A DNA stretch of 64,000 nt from Phoronis australis (GCA_002633005.1 NMRA01000190.1:372001-436000), one strand, 5' to 3'. Positions 586-15,666 are shown, counted from the stretch's first letter. Translations and numbers: made by a program. The notes: generated by a model from the letters alone, not told the origin.

Positions 586-3500
586 TGATCAGTACCCCTC
601 GCAACCTACAACTTGCGAGTCTGACGACAAAAAAACCGCGTCATCGACATGGGCACACAGTAAAGGTAAGCCCGTCTATCGCGAAACATGTAGTGGCTAC
701 GAGTGGTAGAAAACCTGGTGTCAATGTCCCAAAAATGCGATTTATAGAAAAATAATTGACAAGAGTGTGATCTATGCATCAAATTTTCATTTATAAGCGC
801 GGAAGTATCCCATGCCTGCAGGGTGACAGAGTTTATTTCCTGTTTTCATTTAAAGAATCAAGGCTGAAAATGAACACATGTCAACTTCTACAGTTTTGAA
901 GGTCATGCTTCACTAATGTCTTCCTGGCGCGATTTAAAAACCCCGTTTTATTTCATTACTCAAGTGCTTCGCACATCATGTAGGAACATGCGTCTAAGTA
1001 CTAATATAGGCGCACCTTCTGTTCACATATAGTCTATAGAAGCGTATATCAGGTGTCCCAAAAAAGTGAGCCACTTTTCGTAGCCCGCTGGATTGCAATC
1101 AGGACTGGGCGGAGGCCATTCACCCTTTTTGGTGAATTTTGGTGTGGCCTCCTCCAGATGACCCAGGGTTATCTTGCTCGTGTGGGAAGGAGCCACATCT
1201 TGCTTAAACGCGTATTTGTTTCCAAGATGAATTCGCCTGCAATCCGGGAGAAGATTTTCATACAATAAATGCCTATAGCGTTGATTGTTAATCGGCTCTA
1301 TCAGCGTCAATAAAATGAATATTTTGTTTTTCCATCCCAGGATACTCCAGAGGAAACCATTACTTTTTTGGAAAATCTGGAAGTCTAGTGATAGAGTTCA
1401 AAAGGCTCAATCTCTCATGTTTGTTTCCCATAAAAACGATCGTTTTGACAAGTTTTAGCGATTTCTAGCCTAAAGTCTTTTCCATCAGCGAAAATGATTC
1501 TTTTCACATCAGTGGCTGAATAGCGGTCATGCAAGTATAGACATCGAGTTTTTCTTTTCCTCCTAATATTTTGATCTCTCCGTGATACCCACATTTTTGG
1601 ATGGTTTTACCTCCAATTTTCCGCCATTTTTTGTACAGAGGACTTGTAAATCGCTATTAAATGCTACTTCTCTCAGAGTTTTGTGATTCCCCGGGTTGAC
1701 CTCCTGGCATTGAATGAGTTCCTCAACACGATACTCGTTTTCTTTCTAACATGCAGACTTGGGTCTCCCACTGCCACATTTTCGGGCAACAGACCCTGTG
1801 TTGCGCATTTCAGCAATAAGTCTATTTACTCCACCCTTCTCCTGGGAACTCCCTCACGATTCTTCTTCCACTCCACCAAGTTTCTCCTTGCCGGTTTCAA
1901 TAATAAATTTTTCACGTACATTCAAAGGCATCCTTACAAACCAGGATATTGGACAGAATTGATTTGGATACAGATCTCACAATATAAAAACAACAGACTT
2001 GAGAACCAGGCATGTAATTTTTTTGACTGACAAATGCCAGCACAGCATGGACACGATGAAAGTCACAGTGATATGGCATTTTTCACCTTGTTGTATGGAA
2101 TTTCACAGCACTTCCATATTGTTTTATTTCCTTGAAATAGATTGTACACTTGTTGATGACACCCTGGTGATACAATGTAAAAAATTGACCGAATTCCTTT
2201 GGTCAATTGCTGAGAAATGACTAGTCTAAGTGCCAAAAAAGGCTCGCTTTTGGGGGCACCTGATATATGGCAGAGGCTTACGGTTACACTCAAAGATACC
2301 GCGGAGACTGAATGAAACAGAAGTTGTATCAAGTATGTCAAAATTAGTACGTTTGATATGATGCCAGTTAAAGTTATTTGTATTCTTACGCACCATTTGC
2401 TGGTCCCATCAGGGTTAGTAGATAATTCCGGGTTCGTCCCTTGGGCGGAACAAAGACCTTTTCATATCACGTGACGTGACAAACATATTTGGTGTAAAGA
2501 GACTAATAATTCTTACTTGTACCAATATTACTGTTACAGATGTCAATGTTAATTTGTATTACTCTTATTGTCACTCAGTGACTTTAATTGTTGTAAACCT
2601 GTATCGCAAATCGTTTTTTAAGTCTGGCCAGCACGCCACCTGTTGCCGCAGAGTAGCATTCACACATTCATGAGACGTGACAATTCCGCAACTCAAATGA
2701 ATGCGTACAATTAACGAAAGGTGATGAGTACTGCATGCGCTTTTTCGTGTAGGTTTTTCTGCATTTGATACGAAGACGGGGTTTTGGATGATACATTCCC
2801 TGCCAAACTTCCCGACAAATGAAAGCTACTGCTACCCACATTCGGGTTTAGCGAAAGCACAGACGTTTCTCTGCGTTAGCCTGGCTTACGAAGTACTGGA
2901 TACCTTTGGTGAGAACGTTAATTTCTGTTTCCAAAAAGGTTCATTGAAATTGTGAAATTGAATTCTAGAGATTACATTTCAGCTACCCAAATATCATTAA
3001 TGTCTTCATAACATTTCGGTAAATATTCTGAAACCATGTTCAGTTGACGTTAGCCGCAGGATTGTACCTTTTGAGGGTTAGGGGTAACATGCGCGCACCC
3101 AGGGGGACTGTTTGGCGAAGTGGGCAAAAAGGTCCGCCTCAGAGAAATAAAAACTCTGAAAAAAGTAGAGAACGAGACAAAAGTCCACTAAAAAGGCAGG
3201 AACTACCTAAATTCGGCGAATGCACAATTCATGACTGTGAGCGTATCCCGTTTTGTAGCAAAAGGTCCACATTCTCAAAAATTCGAGCCCCCCATTTTTA
3301 GGCTGGGTGCCCGCTTGGTTAAGTTAGGGTTTGGGTTGGGATTAGAACATAACCAGTTTAGTAGGAGAAAATTTGAAAATTTCCTATTTGGTACAATCCT
3401 ACGCCCTATTCAGCTGACGTATGATCTTAATGAAACGCTGCAATACCATTTCAAGCAATGAGGCTGACCAACATAAGCTGCTCCGGCAAATTGACTTAAC

Positions 3501-6500
3501 TTTCCTCCCACCAACTCGTCAATGAGCAGTACCCGTACTTACGATGAGTATCTGTGGCTGTTAGAAGTCTCTGTGTTTTACGTTGATGAATCTCTAATCC
3601 TATTTCGCAACTGATGACCTCATCTCTAAGTTTTAAGTTCTAATCATAATTTGTAAGCCGAGTTTCTGTAACAGTAAAACAAAAAACGTGGCGGCTCATT
3701 TGGAGTTTGAGATCTACCTCAATTTTGGAGATCAAGCCTTGGGCCATGATCGAGAATGTGATGTTGTCATATGGAGAAGGAATTCGCCTATACTGGACAA
3801 CAACAGTGAGAGAGTACAAACCAGTTGCTTTAAAAACGTTCGAATGTTAATGCAAGACGCAGTGACTTTCATACCCAATTGATCTCATGTATCGTAGGAG
3901 AAACGGGACTACTTACAGGACACGATTCCACAGCCGTGTCTTTATGTTATGTAGGAGCTTATCAACAAGACTATGCAATTAACCAATTATCTACAAAACT
4001 ATCAATTTAACTCAACAAAAGTATACATTTTCTAAAAGTAGAAATTGCGTAGAATTTGATTTTTGACTTTATGCCTATCTGCTATTATTAACTCGCGTGA
4101 CCGTACTTTTTATCACAATTTAGAGAAAAGAAAGGTACATTCATAGCAAAACAACAGGATCAATAACACGAGCAAATTTCGCATGATGTAAATATTCAAG
4201 ATAAAATCTCGTAAATGCTGTTACGGTTTTCTAAATCATCGTTTCGTTTTGGTTTTATACGACATTAATTTTTTATATAAAAATCATAGAAATCCGTATT
4301 TTTGATATCCTTTCATGCAAAAGTGGAACATTTTAAACACATCTTATTTTAATAAAATGTAGTAACTGATCCATCCAGGAAAGTTCGTCGCACTTGAATT
4401 AAATCTAGTTTGCTGAACAATACTCACAAAATTAAACTCCAAGAACATAGGCAACATCACTCCTCCTTCAAAGGGAAGATGGTACTGGTACTACTCGCTG
4501 GTTCTGGTTCCCTACGCACTAGCCAGCACGCAGGTATCACGCAGTGGCACGCGCTTTAGCACTGGTTGTTGTAACCTTAGCGGTCATTGGTTAGCTTTAC
4601 AACACCGTAAAAAATGGCGGACTGTGAACGATTTTTAGCCTTGTCCTGCAAGTGGCGTCGCAGCAACTATTTCGTTTCTGCAGCGATGTTTAATAGCCGC
4701 GTGCTTGAAGCACATACATGTACAATAAACACATATCTGGCCGACTTAACCGGTGTCTTATTCATACTATGAATACAGGACAGTATCGTAAACGAAAGTC
4801 ATCGACAGCAGAAAGATGCACTCCGAAAAGGCGCAACGTCAACCGGGATTCACATGGCTGAACATAAATTTTAAGCACCGATTTGTCTGTACAGCAGAAC
4901 ATATTTACACTTCAGTCCATCAGTCATGCCAATTTGTTTGCGTAAAGCGCAGCCTGTTGAGAATTCGACTAGCCAATCAGAAACGCCAGTGCAAAAAAAT
5001 TTCCCGAGGAAAATTAATAAGTGATACCTGCGTACTGGCTACTGACCACCTGGCGGCACGCATGGAACCAGAGAGGATGGTACTGAAGATTGGAGGGAAC
5101 CGTCGCCTCTCGCTTTCTCACAAGATCACGTCTGGTTAGCAACCTCACGTAACCTCTCATCCCAAGGAGGCGACACTTTGAACCGAGCCCCACCTAGCTT
5201 GTTAAGTGGGAACTTGACTGATTTGGTGAACAAAAGCTCCTGTGAACGATTGCATGAAACAGTCCCTAATACGGACTCAGCTGAGGTTCCTAAATCTTTT
5301 GCATATTTGTGTCGTTTTTTACTCCCAGATGTAATATTTTTTCTATCATTGTATCTTTATTATGAGCTCCCCTTTGACTAATGACATTAATTTTGTTATA
5401 AGATACTCTGAACCCTTAATTCATTGAAAACAAAAAGGAACTTAATCCTTCAATTAGGAGCGTTGCATGAAAAGATGCCTACTTATTTTCAATGATATTG
5501 AGAATTCAACGTGGAATTCACTCTCGCTTTGCATCAAAGCCAAAAATTGACTTACTAATGAAACCAAAACAGTATAAGAAACGACATTCAGTGTTTTCAC
5601 AAGTCCACAAGCATGCATTAGATTTAGGGACCTTAGTTGTCTCCCTATTTGGGACTGCTTCATGCAAAGGGGCACTGAACACTTCTCTGAAACCATTTTT
5701 TGTGCAGGATCTCGACATTGTTATTTTTAAATTCGTGACCTGCGTCCTGGAGGTGATTAAAACAGCAAACGACACACCCTCACCAGCAGCCCTTCTATGT
5801 TGATACATACGCTTTTAACGGTTGTACTGGTTCTCCAACATACATCGCCTCGCAGTTCTCTCCCTCATACTGAACAGCAACTAACGTCCGTCAACGGTGA
5901 CATCGTTTCCGTACATTAAAGGTGTGTTGGAGAAGCTGCTGTTTTAATCACCTCCAGGACACATGTCACGAATTTAAAAATGAAAAAGAAAAAACTGGTT
6001 TCAGAGAGGTCTCCAGGAGGCTTTGGTCATCAAATCACTCGATTCCTCACTTAACATGCAAGGTGGAACTTGGTTCAAATTGTAGTCTGCTTGGGATGAG
6101 AGTTTAAGTGAGGTCATAGATTATAGACAACAGTCTATGGTGAGGTTGCTAACGAGACGAGATCTCTTGAGAAAGCACGAAACAACGTTCCCCGCTAATC
6201 TTCGGTACCACCTTCCCTTTGAAGGAGGCGTGATGCCTCCGAGATTCTTGTCCAGCACACCAGATTTAATTCGAGTACAATACCTTACTATAGCGATTTG
6301 GAGAATCCGATCAGCCTTTCCTGAGATATGGTGTTCCTAAGTTGGCCAAAATTGGAATTTTTCTAGGGTTCTACACAATCTCAACGCAGATCATCACAAT
6401 TGTCTTGAGCATAAATTGGTTTCTGGTCACATGTGTATTTGTTTTCATTTATTCAGGACGACAGCTCAAACAGAATCGCCCGAAAATATACGCCCATCGT

Positions 6501-8291
6501 TATCCCACGGCGTTTGCAGAAGACGAAAAGAATGGTCATATGAACGACTTGATGAAGGACCCGGATGAAAACTGGAAACTGGACGTCGACAGTCGTGTAG
6601 TGGAAATGACGTCACTTGGTGGCATATCGTTTACCAACTTTGCAAAATCAGGAAAACCGGAAAATGGGTTAGGTATGATGTGGAAATTTTGAAATGCTTT
6701 AAATCATTCCGTACACGTAGAAACGTGTATTGGGCTGAATTCTGAAAGTTCAACCTGTGCGTAATCTGTGTGCAATGATAACTGTGTAGCCATTTCCAGA
6801 TATAGTTTTCAAAATATTTAAGGTCTAAGCTGTTTACTAATTGGGTTGTCAATCAATACTTAAAAGACAGTGGCTTTACTTATAATAGCAGTCTTTGTCT
6901 CATCGCGCTAAGAAGACGTGGCAGTCTAAGAATTTACAAATGATTATAACAATGGTTATTTCATATGAAGGGTTATCTGTCCCTTAATATGAATCTTATA
7001 GCATCTTTTTGTAGCAAATTAAGTAGAAACTTTCGTTGTTTAAGGGTGATAAAAGCAGAACTTGCCTTAGAATAGTATAAAATAATGTAAGCCTACCCAG
7101 ATACGAAAGTCAGAATCACAAGCTTACTCACTTAATTTTCGAGCTCCCAGCTCTTGAGTTTAAATCATAACTCTGAAACCAACTACTTCTTACATGTTAT
7201 ATTTTATCGATTTCATTTACCTGTCATTGTTGCTTTTTGGTGCCTAAACTTGATCATTACTTTCAGACTTGTACAAGGATTTGGTTGCTCCAACGTTTCA
7301 GTGTAATTTGCACGTGCAGTCCTGGAAGGGAACCTCCAGTCCAATGGACTCCTTATGCGAAGACGGAATCTTCACGGTATTAAAATCTTTAACATAAACT
7401 AATCTATTACTCTTGGGGCAACTCTATTGAAAACGTTTATTAAAGGGAAACTCAAATTTTAATGAACAGCGTCCGGTGGTCTCCTGTCACTTTGGTGACC
7501 GCATCAAAATATTCTTAAGGTCTCGGTATCACTGAGGAAACATTACAATCATTCATTAAACAGTGTTATTTTTTAACAAAAGTTCTTTCGCTTGCTTATA
7601 GGTTGAGAACGTCAAAAGTATAAAGTTTGGCGAGCTTGAAATTGATTCATATAAACGAGAAGATCATTCCAAGTGGACAATAACGGAGGAGGTTACATGT
7701 GCGGACAGCTGGGTATGCGTTGGGGACATCAACAGAGAGGTTAGTATTGGTTGCGACTGTGTGAAATGCATTCTTCATTACGTTTTCAAGTCTAGAAAAC
7801 CTACGGATAGGTGCTGACGTCAGCAGATATTGTCGGTCACTTAACGTTTTTAAGACATGAGAAAACGTAACGGTAAGATCATGTCTAGTGATAGAAAGCC
7901 AATATAAACTAAGTGCTATTCCTCGTGAACTTTAAGACTGTTTGGTTTTGGCAATTTCGTCGTGTAGTTCGTTAATGTTGAAACTTGTGAGAATTTAAAT
8001 TCCGACCACCTTCATAATGTGATAAAAATCCCTATTTTTGGTCTACTGACTGTTTATTTCCACGAGTCCACAAGGGCGGAACTTTTGATTTCTTTTTCAT
8101 TTCAGGAATCTCAGCGAAAGCGAGGTGGTGGTACGATGTGCTTCAAGCAGCCTGTTGTGCACAGCCAGTTCAACACTATAGTAACAGACCTGGAAGATTG
8201 TGACGAACAGATAGAAGACAACGATAAAGTGAAATTCGACCCAGACACTGATGACATCCATTTGATGCATGCGAATCATGATGAATTCTAA
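586..8291 (+). CDS. DNASE2: Deoxyribonuclease II (acid DNase / plancitoxin family), 5'-incomplete, spliced
   Basis: GT-AG exons 586-665, 2753-2908, 6457-6672, 7267-7376, 7602-7739 and 8106-8291 join in frame. They encode DQYP...AHSKG (first HxK site), GFWMIHSLPNFP, QTFLCVS, SLGGISFTNFAKS, DLYKDLVAP, DHSKW (second HxK site), WVCVGDINR and QRKRGGGTMC, all DNase II hallmarks. N-terminal exons were not resolved. Confidence 0.93.
1049..2263 (-). mobile_element. Decayed, internally deleted Tc1/mariner-superfamily transposon (maT/DD37D-like) in a DNase II intron
   Basis: Terminal inverted repeats (TIRs) TCAGGTGTCCCAAAAAAGTGAGCC (1049) and GGCTCGCTTTTGGGGGCACCTGA (to 2263) are flanked by TA. Broken minus-strand frames read RKCGSGRP, IIFADGKDF, NRQNDRFY, KVMVSSG, FKQDVAPSH and WPPPSPDCNP; the frame is truncated before the last catalytic residue. 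Confidence 0.85.
3054..3405. mobile_element. Short non-autonomous element with short TIRs and GGTTAGGG-like internal motifs
   Basis: GCAGGATTGTACC near 3056 is inverted with GGTACAATCCTAC near 3390; GGGTTAGGGG and GTTAGGGTTTGGGTTGGG occur internally. Confidence 0.4.
4494..5075. mobile_element. MITE, long member of the CTCGCTGGTTCCC family
   Basis: The ends CTCGCTGGTTC...CCCTACGCACTAGCC and CCACCTGGCGGCACGCATGGAACCAGAGAG match the element at 10926-11001. GATGGTACTG occurs on both flanks. Confidence 0.75.
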
Positions 8292-8789
8292 ATCATACAT
8301 TGGTGTCTGTACATATACGTTGAAAGTGTAATGTCCAAAACGCACGTGTACAAGTTAGACATAACATATGTTTTTAGCGTCGTCATTGTGTGTGCAAAAT
8401 TTCTCTTTTCACCGTTTTTAAAATGCTCTTTGTTTCTCATTTATTCCGCTGAGAGCAAACAAACAGCTTGAAACAGCTTGTCGTATACTGAGTATGTAGC
8501 TTCTGGTTTATACATTTAACAGCTCCTTATTTTGTAGGTTTATTTTATGCCTATATTTAGCAATGGTTAACATCAATAAATACACAAAACGTACCGAGAG
8601 TGGCGTAGATGAAGTAATATCCCACGAGACATTATTCCGCATATATATTGTTTTTTTTATATGTTTGCCTCTATATCTTAGGAGTTCGTTAGCTTATTTT
8701 CATGAAATTTGGCAAATAGTTATGTTTTGAAGAGATGACGCCTCCTTCTCAATTCATCGGCTTAATTTGAATTCTGCTGTACTAGCAAA

Positions 8790-10691
8790 TCACGATATGT
8801 CCATCGGCTCAAACAAGAACTTGATGTCTGCTTCCGTTAATTTGTTATTAATCACGTTTTCGTTCAAGATGTCCTTTGCCATTTCCAGCTTTTGCTTCTG
8901 CAACTCCTTAATTTGTTCCTCAATAGTGCCCGAACAAAGGAAGCTATGAATGAACACATCCTTTGTTTGGCCCAGACGATGTATTCGATCACATGCCTGT
9001 TGTTCTACCGCAGGATTCCAGGACAGGTCAAGTAGAAAGAGTTGGTTAGCACCCATTAAGTTCAGTCCGACTCCACCAGCGCGTAATGATAACAGCATTA
9101 CAGATGGCCCAACTGAATTGCTATTAAAATTTTTAACAATACGCATCCTGTCGTTTACAGGTGTTTTGCCATCTAATCTACAAAATGAATGTCTTTCCTT
9201 GGTCAGGTGATATTGAAGGATGTCGAGAAGCTTTGTCCATTGAGAAACCACAATACTCTTTGTGGGTTGACTGCTTTCTCCATCATTGCGTAACCTACGC
9301 AACTCTGCCATGAGAACTTTTATTTTGGAACTTTCGTATTCTTTTTCAAATGCAGATATGTGGCTTGCATTCCTCGAGACTGCTTTGCATTGTGTTTCAC
9401 TCCCTATAGTCAAATCTTGCATACGATCTTCTAAAGATCTGTCTACGTCTTCATGTAGCTCGTCGTATTCAATCACCTCTTTCAATAGATTGGGATGAGT
9501 ACAACATTGTCGAAGACGTAGCAGTTTAACAAAGTGTGTTGTAAACCAGGCACGTTTGCTTGGTTGACAAACCCCCTGCATGACGCTGTTGTAAATTGCC
9601 TTCTCGGTATTAGAAAGCTTTAAATCATGCTCGATCCAGTGTCTTTTCGTTAACATTAGTTCGATTTGAGGGTCACTCTTCGTCCTCCTGAGCACGAGAA
9701 GTTTTGCAAAAGTCTTTAAAAATGTGTGATTTTCGCAGCATTCCTTCATGAAACTGTTACTTATATCAGGCAAGTGCATCAGATAGATCAGCAAAGAAAC
9801 TAAATCAGACTCATAATTTTGAATGGGAGTACCTGTCAGGGCCCAACGATACCTAGCCTTTAATTCAAAAACATTTCCGGCTGTGGCCGTCTTCGGATTC
9901 CTTATGGTGTGTGCTTCATCCAGAATTACTCGATCCCAATCAACTCTTTGTAGGAAAGAATCGCGAGTTCTAAGAATTCCGTAAGTTGTCAACACCAATT
10001 CATTTTCAGTAGGGGTCGACTGCTTTCGTCTTGGTCCATGATAAATGACAACTCTTATTTCGTGTAATTCACTATGTTCAGCAACTTCATTCTCCCATTG
10101 GTGGATGATCGATGCCGGAACAACAACAAGAGTAGGTCCGCAGCCTTTCCCATTGTGTTTTTGATGAAGCAGCAGCGCTATGGCAGTAACTGTCTTACCA
10201 AGTCCCATGTCGTCAGCTAAAATTCCTCCTGGAGGATTCTGTTCCTCTCGCCAAGCCATCCACTTGAGAGCACTAATCTGGTGAGGCCATAGACGAGATT
10301 TTAATCCCTGAAGACGATCTGGTATGGTCATCGAATCCGCACATGATCGTCGCTCAAGTTGAGCAAGGAACGACCTTTCAAGCTCTGCTTTTAACAGGAT
10401 TGGTGAGGGAGGATGTTGGGTTGAAAAGTCCCCAGGACCGATATGACCCGGGAGTGTCGGGGTGAAGAGGTCAGTCTTTACGTCGTAATGAGGAGTCTCT
10501 GTCGATGAGACAGCGTGCCGGGGCGAGGAATTCACACCAAAGCCTCTCAAACATCTGGTCCCTTCCAACTCTTTTAGCTTTCGTTCAAAAAACTTACGCG
10601 TAGTGTCGGTTATCACTGCATCAATACCGTGGCCTCGAAGCCTAAGTCTCAAGTCTCCATCACGGGGATTAGGCCCACGTTTCGGCGGCAT
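8790..10691 (-). CDS. Intronless TTF2/Lodestar-like SNF2-family ATPase with an N-terminal LEM-like domain (633 aa)
   Basis: Single ORF with all SF2 motifs: WMAWREEQNPPGGILADDMGLGKT, VVVPASIIHQWENE, VILDEAH, WALTGTPIQN, LLRLRQCCTHP, KSIVVSQWT, LLSLRAGGVGLNL and WNPAVEQQACDRIHRLGQ. It has a TTF2-type C-terminus (KLTEADIKFLF) and no RING insert. The N-terminus DGDLRLRLRGHGIDAVITDTTRKFFERKLKELE resembles a LEM motif. Confidence 0.93.
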   Translation of the reverse strand: MPPKRGPNPRDGDLRLRLRGHGIDAVITDTTRKFFERKLKELEGTRCLRGFGVNSSPRHAVSSTETPHYDVKTDLFTPTLPGHIGPGDFSTQHPPSPILLKAELERSFLAQLERRSCADSMTIPDRLQGLKSRLWPHQISALKWMAWREEQNPPGGILADDMGLGKTVTAIALLLHQKHNGKGCGPTLVVVPASIIHQWENEVAEHSELHEIRVVIYHGPRRKQSTPTENELVLTTYGILRTRDSFLQRVDWDRVILDEAHTIRNPKTATAGNVFELKARYRWALTGTPIQNYESDLVSLLIYLMHLPDISNSFMKECCENHTFLKTFAKLLVLRRTKSDPQIELMLTKRHWIEHDLKLSNTEKAIYNSVMQGVCQPSKRAWFTTHFVKLLRLRQCCTHPNLLKEVIEYDELHEDVDRSLEDRMQDLTIGSETQCKAVSRNASHISAFEKEYESSKIKVLMAELRRLRNDGESSQPTKSIVVSQWTKLLDILQYHLTKERHSFCRLDGKTPVNDRMRIVKNFNSNSVGPSVMLLSLRAGGVGLNLMGANQLFLLDLSWNPAVEQQACDRIHRLGQTKDVFIHSFLCSGTIEEQIKELQKQKLEMAKDILNENVINNKLTEADIKFLFEPMDIS

Positions 10692-10925
10692 ATTTTGATC
10701 AGGCTGACAGGAATTTTACAGTTGCTGTGTCAAATCAGCATCCCGAGACATTTGGAAGTAAAAATACAAAATATTTCCGATAAGATTTCTAAGAAAAGTG
10801 GTTGCGTTTAGTAACGCTAGGACCTAGATGAAATCTAGCGAAAGTCACGTGTTCTCATTTACGACAATATCTCACATAATCTCGCGAACTCCTGCTTTTA
10901 GCGAGGTCCTTGCGTTACTGAACGG

Positions 10926-11001
10926 CTCGCTGGTTCCCTGCGTGCTTAGCCTTGCTGGCGCGGCTACCGCCCCACCTAGCGGCACGCAGGGAACCAGCGA
11001 G
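10926..11001. mobile_element. 76-bp hairpin mini-MITE with a 10-bp TSD
   Basis: Perfect 20-bp TIR CTCGCTGGTTCCCTGCGTGC / GCACGCAGGGAACCAGCGAG, flanked by TACTGAACGG at 10916-10925 and 11002-11011. Confidence 0.9.
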
Positions 11002-12236
11002 TACTGAACGGAGGACTGTGACAATATTTACGCGATCAAGACGGAACGGTCGGCTCACCGGTCCAGGACTTACACAGAGATTCACATCCGGCGGTGCTGT
11101 AAGATAGGTTTTGGATTGTAACCAAACGTTTTTTTATGAAATTTATAAAATCAATAGGTGACTCAAAAAGTGAACACAGGAATAGAGAATTTAGTATACT
11201 TCGGCAGTAAGAAGTTATCTAACAATCAATGTCGTATCGCAACTTTTTAACTAACTTTACACCAAGAATAGAGAATTTGTCTGCTTCCTGGGCAGAGCTA
11301 TTCTCATGGCGGGAACTGTGTCAATCACGTGTTTCCATGTTGAAATACTCTCAAAAATGTTGAACCTTTGCTTGTTACAGAATTATATTCTTTCAAGTCA
11401 AGTATGGCTGAAAAACTTTTAGTAGATGCAGCTTTTTATCGTTTTACAGTATTACTTATGGTTAAGTCCCAAGACCAATTACATTTATGAAAAAAGCAAC
11501 ATGAATAATAAATGGGTCAACCAATCAAAATGACCGTTTAGTAAGTGACTCGGGTAGCTTTTACGTCATCGTCATCTTTGTTCCACGTTGGGTGATCTGG
11601 CTACCGGCTGCCTCTGGAAGACGTGATTATCTCCACTTTCATACCCAATTTTATTGTGGGATTGGTCACCGTTTAACTGCAGTGTTCACCAGATCATTTT
11701 TTCGAGAAAGTTTCCCTGGTTACCTTATTAGAAATCACTCAACAACAAGACGATGATAGCAGATACGGCCGTCTTTCCAAGCGGGTAAGGCAAGGTTACC
11801 TCACGTCCTCCGACTCAGTCTCTGACTCTGGGCTCGGGAAGAATTGACAATTAACTATTTTTTCATACTTAAGTCATAAAATTTGAGTGAGGTTACGACG
11901 ACCATGCATTGAAAACTCTAGACAATACTCAGCTCTTAAACAGACCAACTCGACTATGAAAGTGTGCGTAAATGCCGTTGCGTTCAGTTCACATTAACTA
12001 AGTTGAGATTGGTGTGCTTTAAGCAACTTAATAGCCAATACTCAGCTCTTAAACAGTGCCGAAGATCCACCTGAGGACTTGGTGAAATGGGTATAAACCA
12101 AAAGAATGGTTGGAAAATTCGTGTTCAGTGTGTTAGTACTAACCAAAACAAATTCCCTTGATACGTTTGGAAAACCGCAAACGGCCTTACTTGTTAGTGT
12201 TATGTTTCGCCTCGTGAAACCGCAAACGGCCTTACC

Positions 12237-14912
12237 CAGTGGCGGATCTAGGGTATCACAAGGGGGGGGCCCAACATGTTGTCTGAAAACATTTGTGCAA
12301 AGCACGATTAGATGCGCATGGCACCGAATGGGGGGAGGTAGGGAGGGGCGTTCGCCCAGGAAAAATTTTCTGTTTTTTCCTCTAAAAATCCAGCATTTTC
12401 CTTGATTCCTGAAGTAATATCCAAGAAAAAAAGGCAAAGAAAAAGAAAAAAAAAACACGGCGAATGTGTCAAACATGAAAAACTACAATTTTCACTGACT
12501 CGAACTCACGACATGGCGGAAATAGCGATAGTACTCTGGAGTTCCGAATAGTAGTAGGGACAGCAATAATAGTATAGACTGGAAAATTTCACGATTTTTG
12601 ATAATAGTAGAGACTAATAATAGTATACACCCAACATTTTTGCCACTAGAAAAGTAGAATAATAGTATAGACCGGAAATTTGTCGGAAAAAATTAATAAT
12701 AGTATAGAATGGAATAATGGTATAGACGGCAAATTTGTGGAAATTTAAACATAGTATAGACTGGAATAATAATATTGATTACAAATTTAGGTAAAATCTA
12801 ATAATGATATAGAAAGGAATATTGCAAAACAGCAAATTCTAAGGAATAATGGAATAGGCGGAAAATTTGTGGAAAATTAAAAATGATATAAACTGGAATA
12901 ATAACATTGATTACAAATTTGCGTAAAATCTAGTAACGGTAGATGGAAATAATAGGAAGTGCAAAATCTAATAATGATGTAAATAGGACTGGAATAATAG
13001 TGCAAAGAAGCATATTCTGTCTGACCACCGCTTTAAAATTGTTTCAAAGAAAAACTTTTAAATTGAACATTAGCATAGTTAAATTATTGCAGTGGTGTAT
13101 CCACCCATAGAACAGTGAAGTGGAATAAAGTGTCATTGCTAAAACAAAGATCATTCGTTTATTCAATAACTTTCAATGGAAGTCTATATAGATGTGTTTC
13201 AAACAGTATGCGTTATTATTTTACTCAAAAAAGAATGTGACATTCATACTAGAGATGCCAATGTCGACTAAGTCCAAAAATTATAACAAGGAGGTAAATA
13301 TTTCAGCAGCAAGGTCCAGTATTCCACAAAGCCGACAATAAAGTGTCTTGGTAAAACGAGTCGCATTTTTATCATACATGTTCCTGACAGTCGAGCCTTT
13401 GTTTCTCTCAATCTCATGTCTTGCACAATGTTCATAGTCAATACCCTCGTAATGTTTGTCAGAATTCGACGTCAAAAAGTCGGTACAGCCAAAATTTTAC
13501 ACGGCCAGAAATTGAGATTTCTTGCAGAATTGCCCAACATTCAAGTCCATGACCACAACTACGTCCACAATCTTGAATATCTAATTAGATATAATAAACA
13601 AACCGATTCACGTGTGTTTCCATTTACTTGGACGGGAGAGCAAGTAGAAATCAATTTCAATAGATATCGACTGGATTGTCGAACGTTAGCAACTATGTCA
13701 TTTTCAAGATTAACCATTAGTCCATTCTTCCTGTTCATAAAAACAATCTATTCTCAAGTTTGGAGCGAATTGTAAAAATGCTGATTTCCGATGTTGTAGG
13801 CAACTTGTTGGTACTTTATTGATTCTAGGAACCTGGTTCCTAGGTAGCCAGCCAGCTAGCTGCCTGTATGAAGGCTAGTTCCTAGGTTGATTGAAAGGTT
13901 CAGCACCATTCATTAACTGCACGGGTATTTGCGCTTCCTTGACTTGCCGCATTATCACCACGGTCCATATCTGTAGCTGGATTATTTGTCGTACCAGCGT
14001 CTGAATCAATGTCTGTATCTGGAACATCTCTCGGTTTGTAAAATAATCCTCGAATTCTTTTAGGCCTTTGCGCGGCAGACGACATGATTAAGTATGTAGA
14101 ATGCGCATGTCAATAATGATGGAAAGCGCAGATGACACTGGCTGTGCAAAATCCCGGAATTATTCCCCCATAAACGCAAACTTTGGGGACAGACACAGTG
14201 AAGAGTTGTTAAGGCTTCCCAGTTTTTCACAGGGTACAATTATTGGATCACCCAAAGAAACTCATCGAAAGCGTTTTTATTTATATGTATATTGAGCTGC
14301 CGTTAACAACGATTTGTGTCACGGGGCGCGCAGAATATTGAAAAATGCACTTTTTGTGCATTAAATTCATCATTTCTGGAGTTACTGATGGCCTATTTCT
14401 TTGAGCGACTGCCGACCAGCCGATAATATTAAGAGAAGTGGTCATTATTTCAAGCTTTTTAAATTTTGCCAACACTTCCTTAATTCTGACCAATCCCGTC
14501 GAACCCGTCCAAAATAACATTCTGGCCTTCCAGCAGACAGCCGCTGCGTAAATCCTTGCTTGGGAGTCCCGTTATTTACGCTTTGAAACATACAGTTGTA
14601 TATTTTAGCGAATAAAATCTTTTAACGTGTATGACATGTGACTTACGTGTGTAACGCGGAGTCGTATATAGATCTTCTAAATTACGAAATTTGAACAGAG
14701 TGTCTCGTGGTCTTGAGGTTTAGAGCAAAGTAAGAGCAATTAAATCATGTCTCACGACCAAGGTATGATACCCGGTGGCAGCAGCTAAGTTTTTGTGTAA
14801 CAAATTTGTAATGAATGAAACAAAAATTGAGAACTTACTCAATCAAATAATCGTGGAGAGTGGAAAAAGGTTAGAAAATTAATAAACGGGCCCCCCCCTA
14901 AATCCGCCTATG
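12237..14912. mobile_element. ~2.7-kb non-autonomous hAT-like DNA transposon with a 5-bp TSD
   Basis: TIRs CAGTGGCGGATCTAGGG and CCCTAAATCCGCCTATG; TTACC on both flanks (12232-12236 and 14913-14917). It interrupts the second copy of a ~45-bp tandem unit whose intact first copy lies at about 12170-12215. Confidence 0.8.
12540..13010. repeat. Degenerate minisatellite (AATAATAGTATAGAC(T/C)GGAAATTT-like)
   Basis: Many imperfect copies of AATAATAGTATAGA and GGAATAAT; it looks like a subterminal array of a nested DNA transposon. Confidence 0.7.
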
Positions 14913-15666
14913 TTACCTGTTAGCGTTATGTTTCGCCTCGTTTTACCTTCCGCTAACAACTTGCTGTGAATCATATGAGCCTCAGTTTGTGTTAGCCACT
15001 CGCTAACACTGTGCAACTCCCTATTTGCTGATTGGTTGCACGCTTTGTGGTTTTATCAGATCCGTGCGTGGTTTGATTCCCGGGTTGGGTAATCTCGGCA
15101 ATTACTAACTACAATACTTCCCATTGGTTTCTTATCTCCATGTATTTGAAGGGAATGGTTGTGCACCCCAGTCATGGAATAAGAGCTTTTCAACTCGTCA
15201 AAAATACATATTTATTATTACACTTAAAATTGTCACTTAAAAAAGCGCTTACTTTCTTTAGCAATCCTTTTTGGTTCTATGCATATCCTTCATGAAACCT
15301 GTGTTTGGGAATTAAGATGACTTAAGCGAAGAATTCCAACTCCACTTTCTTCTTTGCTGTTAACTTTTTCACCGCACGCAATAACCACCAAATGATGTCA
15401 CAAGTTAGGTCACAACAAGAGACTGTGGAGCATGAGACCTGGCGGCTGACACTTGCAAAAAGGAGCATGGGAGGATATCCAAAGGAACTCGAAAGATGTC
15501 TGTCGGACTTTTTATTTGTGAACTGGCGTGATTTCCTTAAAATGGCACCAGGCAATGGAAACTCAAGTGAACCTCCACAGATTTTCATGAATATGTTCAA
15601 ATTATGTAATTGTTGACTAAATTGTCTCCAAAGTCATGGTATGTTTTAATTATAACTCAATGCATA

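Follow-up and report, generated by a model that had tools for sequence, protein, structure and literature searches.

A single-exon gene of Phoronis australis joins a putative degenerate LEM domain to a TTF2-type SNF2 motor

A single-exon gene in a 64,000-nucleotide stretch of the Phoronis australis genome (hereafter the window, meaning that stretch at its full length) is a real, selected chimera of a short N-terminal module and a TTF2-type SNF2 motor. The N-terminal module has good odds of being LEM-derived, and we refer to the gene and its product as LEM-TTF2. In our preferred reading, to which we assign a probability of about 45%, the TTF2 motor has been re-addressed to BAF-coated chromatin by this degenerate LEM in a chimeric, likely retroposed gene.

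Translation of positions 8790-10691 on the minus strand (from 10691 to 8790) gives a stop-free ORF of 633 codons, and the plus strand of the same interval is riddled with stops. The LEM-TTF2 frame, 641 aa from stop to stop, is the longest in the 64-kb window, where the runner-up reaches 179 aa, and an in-frame TAA is located at 10716-10718, upstream of the ATG. The first-pass annotation had described a 633-aa single-exon ORF amid multi-intron genes. This description was borne out. The matches of the neighbouring genes are split over separate frames (four for DNase II, three for FAM199X, two for MFAP1, and one for a BTHB domain of the FKBP25-like type). Its reading of residues 11-44 also matches the translation as quoted. 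The gene is laid out as follows.

8790-10691, minus strand: single-exon ORF of 633 aa with LEM, linker, and TTF2-type SNF2 motor (translation, Pfam, DNA contig, and sense-only RNA)
10692-10800, minus strand: unspliced 5' leader with the in-frame TAA (sense reads at a depth of ~2, in run X5 only)
10662-10691, minus strand: basic and proline-containing N-terminal tail, aa 1-10 (sequence; predicted to be disordered)
10560-10661, minus strand: degenerate LEM domain, aa 11-44 (Pfam PF03020; predicted helix)
10407-10559, minus strand: S/T/P-rich linker, aa 45-95 (composition; low pLDDT; no Pfam family)
10332-10406, minus strand: pre-ATPase helix, aa 96-120 (alignment to the helix preceding the ATPase in TTF2; helix predicted at 97-114)
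9477-10331, minus strand: SNF2 N-terminal RecA lobe and protrusions, aa 121-405 (Pfam; alignment)
8793-9476, minus strand: RING-less inter-lobe segment, helicase C-terminal lobe, and TTF2-type tail, aa 406-633 (Pfam; AF2 model; alignment)

On the whole protein, Pfam detects SNF2-rel_dom at residues 137-402 and Helicase_C at residues 456-574. The ATPase motifs, which had been claimed to be intact, are all present (SNF2 motifs I-VI): GGILADDMGLGKT at residue 155, DEAH at 258, LTGTPIQN at 285, LRRTK at 334, LRLRQ at 391, VSQW at 482, LSLRAGGVGLNL at 534, and WNPAVEQQACDRIHRLGQ at 558. The AF2 model of the full protein (pLDDT 81.5, pTM 0.79) has a confident two-lobe motor that includes the TTF2 pre-ATPase helix. 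The linker following the LEM is rich in S, P, and T, as originally proposed (37% S+T+P over aa 45-95). It is predicted to be disordered, with pLDDT values below 50 at aa 45-84, and the fusion junction appears to lie within it. The protein begins with Met-Pro-Pro-Lys (10680-10691), a start that presumably fits the X-Pro-Lys signal for N-terminal methylation known from chromatin proteins.

A DNA contig spanning 8692-10860 shows no difference from the window, although the DNA run behind it may be the source sample, and its depth (41.9) is comparable with that of the flanks (36.6-45.4). The matching depth and the difference-free contig indicate a single-copy locus and not an assembly join. Three stranded RNA runs with the same species label (X5, X6, and X7) were used, ~18-19% of each. 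Over 27 bins covering 8798-10795, RNA is sense-only in all three runs, with no antisense signal in 27 of 27 bins. Sense bins are non-zero in 23, 15, and 11 of the 27 in the individual runs and in all 27 when the runs are pooled. The DNase II exons exhibit the opposite mate orientation at a similar depth, which fixes the strand of the LEM-TTF2 transcript. A further run, X8, gave no contig over the ORF, an outcome that carries no information either way.

Coverage in X5 is unbroken from 10278 to 10795 and includes the motor start, the linker, the LEM, and ~100 nt of unspliced leader with its in-frame stop. RNA across the junction was one of the checks proposed for the claimed gene, and sense reads over the LEM, linker, and leader were observed in X5 only: the LEM and the junction are covered at a depth of 2-9 in this one of the three runs, with no such reads in X6 or X7, and no single RNA molecule was seen to span both the LEM and the motor. 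At a threshold of 3 reads, no splice joint within the ORF was found in the RNA reads. A transcript that splices upstream GRF-finger exons onto this ORF, raised beforehand as a possible refutation, is opposed by the unspliced leader and by a tblastn search of the window with 269 matched proteins, which found no GRF-finger exon outside the ORF.

Residues ~97-633 constitute the TTF2 motor. A careful 21-row tree places it inside the TTF2 clade with a support of 100/99, on a branch of 2.36 as compared with a median of 0.54. A quick tree of 46 rows agrees with the TTF2 grouping (SH-aLRT 97), and in both trees the motor branch is ~2 changes per site long. A FastTree of 169 rows places the protein near the base, beside another long branch. 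The rows of all three trees were hand-picked from the database matches. The join to arthropods within TTF2 in the 21-row tree (88/81) is probably due to long-branch attraction. The best 120 of 7929 database matches are either named TTF2 or unnamed, and no match stood out as an orthologue in a search of 50%-identity clusters. Pfam detects no RING between the lobes, in contrast to the RING-bearing RAD5/16/HLTF-like proteins. The proposed TTF2 source of the motor is therefore upheld by the clade, the best named matches, and the lack of a RING.

The motor is ~42% identical to each TTF2, and the TTF2s of Owenia, Lineus, Liolophura, and Anneissia are 60-65% identical among themselves. In 42 TTF2 rows, 135 columns reach a conservation of 95% or more, and the motor retains 117 of them; the match to TTF2 is 89% at invariant columns versus 14-35% at variable ones. 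Three loop deletions of 22, 24, and 48 columns, located after aa 183, 240, and 372, are all in frame. The retention of invariant columns, the divergence of variable ones, and the in-frame nature of the large deletions point to a motor that evolves fast under lasting purifying selection. A dN/dS check had been suggested, and the part of it that stands is purifying selection as seen from motor conservation. The read variants of the ORF point in the same direction only weakly: among those listed, 15 comprise 7 synonymous and 8 non-synonymous changes (pN/pS 0.33-0.42), a weak test with p = 0.03 unweighted and 0.06-0.08 with transition weighting.

As had been claimed, the protein has no GRF finger: Pfam finds no PF06839 in it, no such exon is located in the window, and the upstream in-frame stop is within unspliced RNA. 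Judged by its predicted domains, LEM-TTF2 is not a canonical TTF2 and resembles an N-terminally deleted form. It shares with TTF2/Lodestar the motor clade, the motifs, the pre-ATPase helix, the lack of a RING, and the C-terminal tail. In contrast, TTF2/Lodestar proteins are ~1000-1200 aa long with a GRF finger and a long N-terminal region, whereas LEM-TTF2 has 633 aa and lacks both. Its three deleted loops, ~42% identity, single exon, and N-terminal LEM also set it apart.

The N-terminus matches Pfam LEM (PF03020) at aa 11-42, corresponding to profile positions 7-39 of 40. With 24,736 models scanned and a cut-off of 24 bits for this family, the whole protein scores 23.9 bits (E = 3.1e-5), 0.1 bit below the cut-off, whereas aa 1-60 score 29.5 bits (E = 5.5e-7) and two other N-terminal cuts score 27.8 and 30.7 bits. 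The first-pass assignment of a LEM-class N-terminus is thus supported by scores above the cut-off on three fragments (E-values of 2e-7 to 2e-6). Apart from LEM, no Pfam family matches aa 1-60 at E ≤ 10, including LEM-like, HeH, and SAP. The helix-2 half is well kept, and the Gly-Pro loop is altered and approximately one residue shorter. A helix is predicted at aa 23-44 in the full AF2 model, in which aa 1-24 have pLDDT values below 50, and at aa 29-44 in a single-sequence model; helix 1 is absent from both predictions. The single-sequence model of aa 4-50 (strand-strand-helix, pTM 0.44) contains the second LEM helix only and is weak evidence because no alignment was used. It gave no LEM match against PDB folds. 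With aa 1-60, phmmer against the PDB returned one chance match and no solved LEM, and the ESM Atlas returned no usable match. A region search with the same residues, word-based and weak, gave 13 candidates (lengths of 348-1108), none of which reached E ≤ 10.

Canonical LEM domains are confined to animals and their close kin and bind BAF, whereas LEM-like domains bind DNA (PMC5630835). The emerin residues that touch BAF are T13, G24, P25, V27, S29, T30, L33, Y34, K36, and K37 (PMC6459885, PMC6212729). We set the register between emerin and LEM-TTF2 by hand, placing TR30 and YEKK34 of emerin (PMC3810338) on T31-R32 and F35-E36-R37-K38; the register over helix 1 and the loss of about one residue from the loop are provisional. 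In this hand register, 7 of the 10 contacts are identical or similar. Two are identical (T30 to T31 and K37 to K38), five are similar (S29 to T30, L33 to F34, Y34 to F35, K36 to R37, and V27 to T28), and three are changed (G24 to A25, P25 to V26, and T13 to Arg). Replacement of emerin residues 24-27 with alanines abolished BAF binding (PMC6212729, PMC3810338). An early caveat that the altered Gly-Pro dipeptide leaves BAF binding uncertain is therefore serious, since the dipeptide lies within the mapped BAF surface of emerin (PMC6212729, PMC6459885). Judging from the sequence, we consider the odds that the degenerate LEM binds BAF to be about even, and the odds that the motor is tethered through BAF are likewise roughly even.

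Several observations on TTF2 and BAF bear on what such a protein might do. Studies in Xenopus extracts and human cells found that the zinc finger and the POLE2 motif of TTF2 are needed for replisome removal, whereas the ATPase by itself is enough to clear Pol II from mitotic chromosomes and to sustain viability; TTF2 without its N-terminus rescues Pol II eviction (PMC11623681). Lodestar helps chromatid resolution and transcript removal (PMC10481674). In late mitosis, BAF collects on chromosome cores, and the emerin LEM alone is enough for localization there (PMC6212729). In the proposed mechanism, the LEM and flexible linker would stand in for the whole regulatory N-terminus of TTF2. Helix 2 would still dock on the BAF dimer, probably more weakly, and would thereby hold a DNA translocase powered by ATP on chromatin coated with BAF; there the motor would remove transcripts and RNA polymerases that have stalled. 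Since BAF gathers on chromosomes and bridges in late mitosis, the docking would concentrate the motor at these sites. The motor would hydrolyse ATP on DNA and evict Pol II as N-terminally deleted TTF2 does. Because replisome removal needs the TTF2 N-terminus, LEM-TTF2 would be unable to do the TRAIP/POLE2 replisome job and would keep only the Pol II and transcript-stripping activity.

A bolder version, which we regard as doubtful, is a new mitotic machine in which a BAF-docking LEM replaces the TRAIP/POLE2-binding N-terminus and a soluble motor clears polymerases, transcripts, or BAF itself. Such a protein may act on chromosomes and bridges during envelope re-formation or on BAF-coated foreign DNA.

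No second protein with this architecture was found among the matches scanned, in line with the claim that a LEM-SNF2 architecture is undescribed. PF03020 is in none of the best 120 of 7929 matches according to precomputed domains, and LEM at E ≤ 0.001 occurs in 0 of 149 further representative matches, taken from the top of sets of 7929 and 96,690 and thus from part of all SNF2 proteins. In one of the scanned alignments, only families with at least two members were counted, and LEM is not among them. In searches of open-access literature, no title or abstract start among the papers listed described a LEM-SNF2 or LEM-TTF2 fusion. The pairing of a LEM with the TTF2 motor appears to be new, and chimeric intronless genes are already known as a class. 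If their gene models are right, other TTF2-like matches carry unusual extra domains: cold-shock (two), Ulp1 protease (one), and RNase H (one). One database protein of 1833 aa (P0124) contains two complete tandem SNF2 ATPase units, each after a similar short segment; it may reflect a genuine tandem fusion or the merging of two gene models.

Among known LEM proteins, emerin, LAP2, MAN1, and LEM2 also have an N-terminal LEM followed by an S/T/P-rich linker, and their helix-2 contacts are mostly kept in LEM-TTF2. In contrast, LEM-TTF2 has no detected membrane anchor or MSC domain, its Gly-Pro loop is altered, and an ATPase is fused. ANKLE1/LEM-3 is likewise a soluble LEM-bearing DNA-processing enzyme, which acts on chromatin bridges (PMC12686533, PMC7610144). 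However, ANKLE1 has a GIY-YIG nuclease, ankyrin repeats, and an internal LEM, whereas LEM-TTF2 has an SNF2 motor, so the analogy is functional only. Like the chimeric retrogenes jingwei and TRIMCyp, LEM-TTF2 would be a copy without introns that became attached to a module from elsewhere and is driven by a borrowed promoter; the partners are different, and both modules of LEM-TTF2 are in one exon. Short insect TTF2-like proteins of 584-633 aa (P0113, P0185, and P0227) resemble LEM-TTF2 in being N-terminally reduced and fast-evolving (Tenebrio, 584 aa; Phyllotreta, 633 aa; Drosophila busckii, 618 aa), but they have no LEM match and no supported grouping with it. They suggest that motor-only TTF2 copies were born repeatedly in insects.

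The existence of these LEM-less proteins in Tenebrio, Phyllotreta, and Drosophila busckii bears on the main rival explanation, which we consider unlikely. The chimera would be real, but its LEM would be a decaying passenger that gives a start codon and leader, and the selected part would be a trimmed TTF2 acting as a second Pol II release factor, perhaps in the germline or embryo. The changed Gly-Pro contacts and the unpredicted helix 1 are consistent with such decay, and the ATPase alone suffices for Pol II eviction and viability (PMC11623681). The LEM of human ANKLE1 is dispensable for several activities, including midbody targeting and in vitro cutting (PMC12686533), which implies that a LEM may ride along without a targeting role. 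However, 34 neutral residues are expected to fade or to be deleted over ~2 changes per site, whereas the fragment still passes the LEM cut-off and has kept its BAF-facing helix 2. This argument fails if the LEM is recent.

The same altered loop might instead mean that the LEM was repurposed and now helps to anchor the motor on DNA, through direct binding of DNA or of some other partner. The segment is basic, with several Arg in helices 1 and 2, the BAF-specific Gly-Pro is gone, and LEM-like domains contact DNA directly (PMC5630835). Pfam gives the canonical LEM only, with no LEM-like, HeH, or SAP match at E ≤ 10, and we regard this possibility as improbable. It is still less probable that LEM-TTF2 is the sole TTF2 orthologue of the animal, a resident gene whose introns and N-terminus disappeared and to which a LEM was added at the original locus. 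The single-copy depth at 90% likeness agrees with a sole gene, but an identity of ~42% to all TTF2s, as compared with 60-65% among the four species named above, fits a freed duplicate, and the neighbours retained their introns.

A chance resemblance to LEM, the N-terminus being eroded TTF2 or captured non-coding sequence, would explain the borderline whole-protein score, the lack of a LEM fold or of a phmmer match to solved LEMs, the empty region search, and the missing Atlas match; one insect-type TTF2 alignment also extends weakly across the region. It is nevertheless very improbable given the E-values of three fragments (2e-7 to 2e-6, over profile positions 7-39 of 40), the N-terminal place ahead of an S/T/P linker, and the absence of LEM at E ≤ 0.001 from all 149 related proteins. 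An endogenised viral SNF2 helicase would also be intronless, compact, and fast-evolving, but it is hardly credible, since viral contigs match at 23-39% in the best segment and 23-34% near full length (at least 79 loci), phages at ~30%, and BFVD folds at 13-26%, pattern searches of viral and metagenome contigs gave 11 and 74 matches, none confirmed as a close relative, and the protein nests in animal TTF2 in a tree that did not specifically include TTF2-like genes of baculovirus type. The gene also has no viral neighbours.

Returning to the preferred reading of a LEM-addressed motor, we consider that the gene probably arose by retroposition because it is an intronless copy among genes that are split by introns. 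No direct repeat was found flanking the gene as a target-site duplication, and no poly(A) tail was identified; neither would be expected to outlast such divergence. An A8 run is located ~135 nt past the stop, within a repeat-rich flank. Most simply, a processed, 5'-truncated copy of TTF2 would have been joined to LEM-coding sequence during reverse transcription. The distance of ~500 bp between the stops of LEM-TTF2 and DNase II leaves no room for the rest of a LEM gene, which argues for joining before landing and against a landing inside an intact LEM gene here. Pack-type transposon capture was also considered and rejected: the flanking repeats are unlike each other by blastn, the gene is single-copy, and of the 13 inverted pairs only one spans it, with 18 nt matching at 83%. 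Neither a close annotated relative of the host nor the protein itself is in the protein collection, so the absence of orthologues says little about the age of the gene.

The flanks contain the following features, none of the repeats being assigned a strand.

8575-8725: high-copy repeats in the 3' flank, before the convergent DNase II (read depth)
10805-10925: high-copy repeat that adjoins the leader on its upstream side, with imperfect inverted ends of 29 nt (very high DNA depth)
10926-11001: MITE-like element of 76 bp with 20-nt perfect inverted ends (10-nt direct repeat at 10916-10925 and 11002-11011)
11418-11786, plus strand: divergent transcript start (CCAAT at 11521, ATG at 11753, GT donor at 11785; RNA depth of 3-4.6 in three runs)

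The DNase II gene (~2700-8291, plus strand, stop at 8289-8291) is arranged tail-to-tail with LEM-TTF2, and its last exon encodes an acidic C-terminal extension. On the other side, LEM-TTF2 is head-to-head with a plus-strand gene; the gap of less than 1 kb contains two high-copy repeats. The 76-bp hairpin element has a very high copy number and is inserted at the edge of the other repeat; by the target-site length rule, we take it to be a Mutator-type MITE. The divergent start is single-copy; besides the ATG, its sequence has CCAAT boxes and a CRE-like site, and its GT donor is strong. From its sequence and RNA, it is likely the first exon of FAM199X, and no RNA was detected in the adjacent bin (11117-11417) in the three runs. 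The arrangement suggests a shared promoter in the gap between the leader and the plus-strand transcript, and the LEM-TTF2 copy would have been switched on by its insertion head-to-head with this existing promoter.

A decayed mid-copy repeat at 12600-15000 (DNA depth of ~1000-4500 versus 40, broken frames, reads on both strands) gave no Pfam match for the frames tried and likely lies within the first intron of the plus-strand gene. The genes after LEM-TTF2 are, in order, FAM199X, PKMYT1 (by homology), MFAP1, and the BTHB-domain gene. A PKMYT1 exon has its best named matches in proteins of molluscs, annelids, and brachiopods (60-65%), which points to a host that is likely an invertebrate of lophotrochozoan type.

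The ATPase and the N-terminus of TTF2 have separate mitotic jobs, and LEM-TTF2 represents a natural swap in which the motor alone bears a new address label. Should the LEM fail to bind BAF, the gene would remain a clear example of an old chimeric gene, in one species so far. If it does bind BAF, LEM-TTF2 would give structural biologists a small TTF2 motor that is free of loops and would link mitotic transcript clearance to nuclear envelope re-formation. In the literature cited, the described LEM proteins are envelope tethers or a nuclease (ANKLE1), and none is a DNA motor; if its LEM docks on BAF, LEM-TTF2 would be the first remodeller powered by ATP to have a direct link to the BAF-LEM system.
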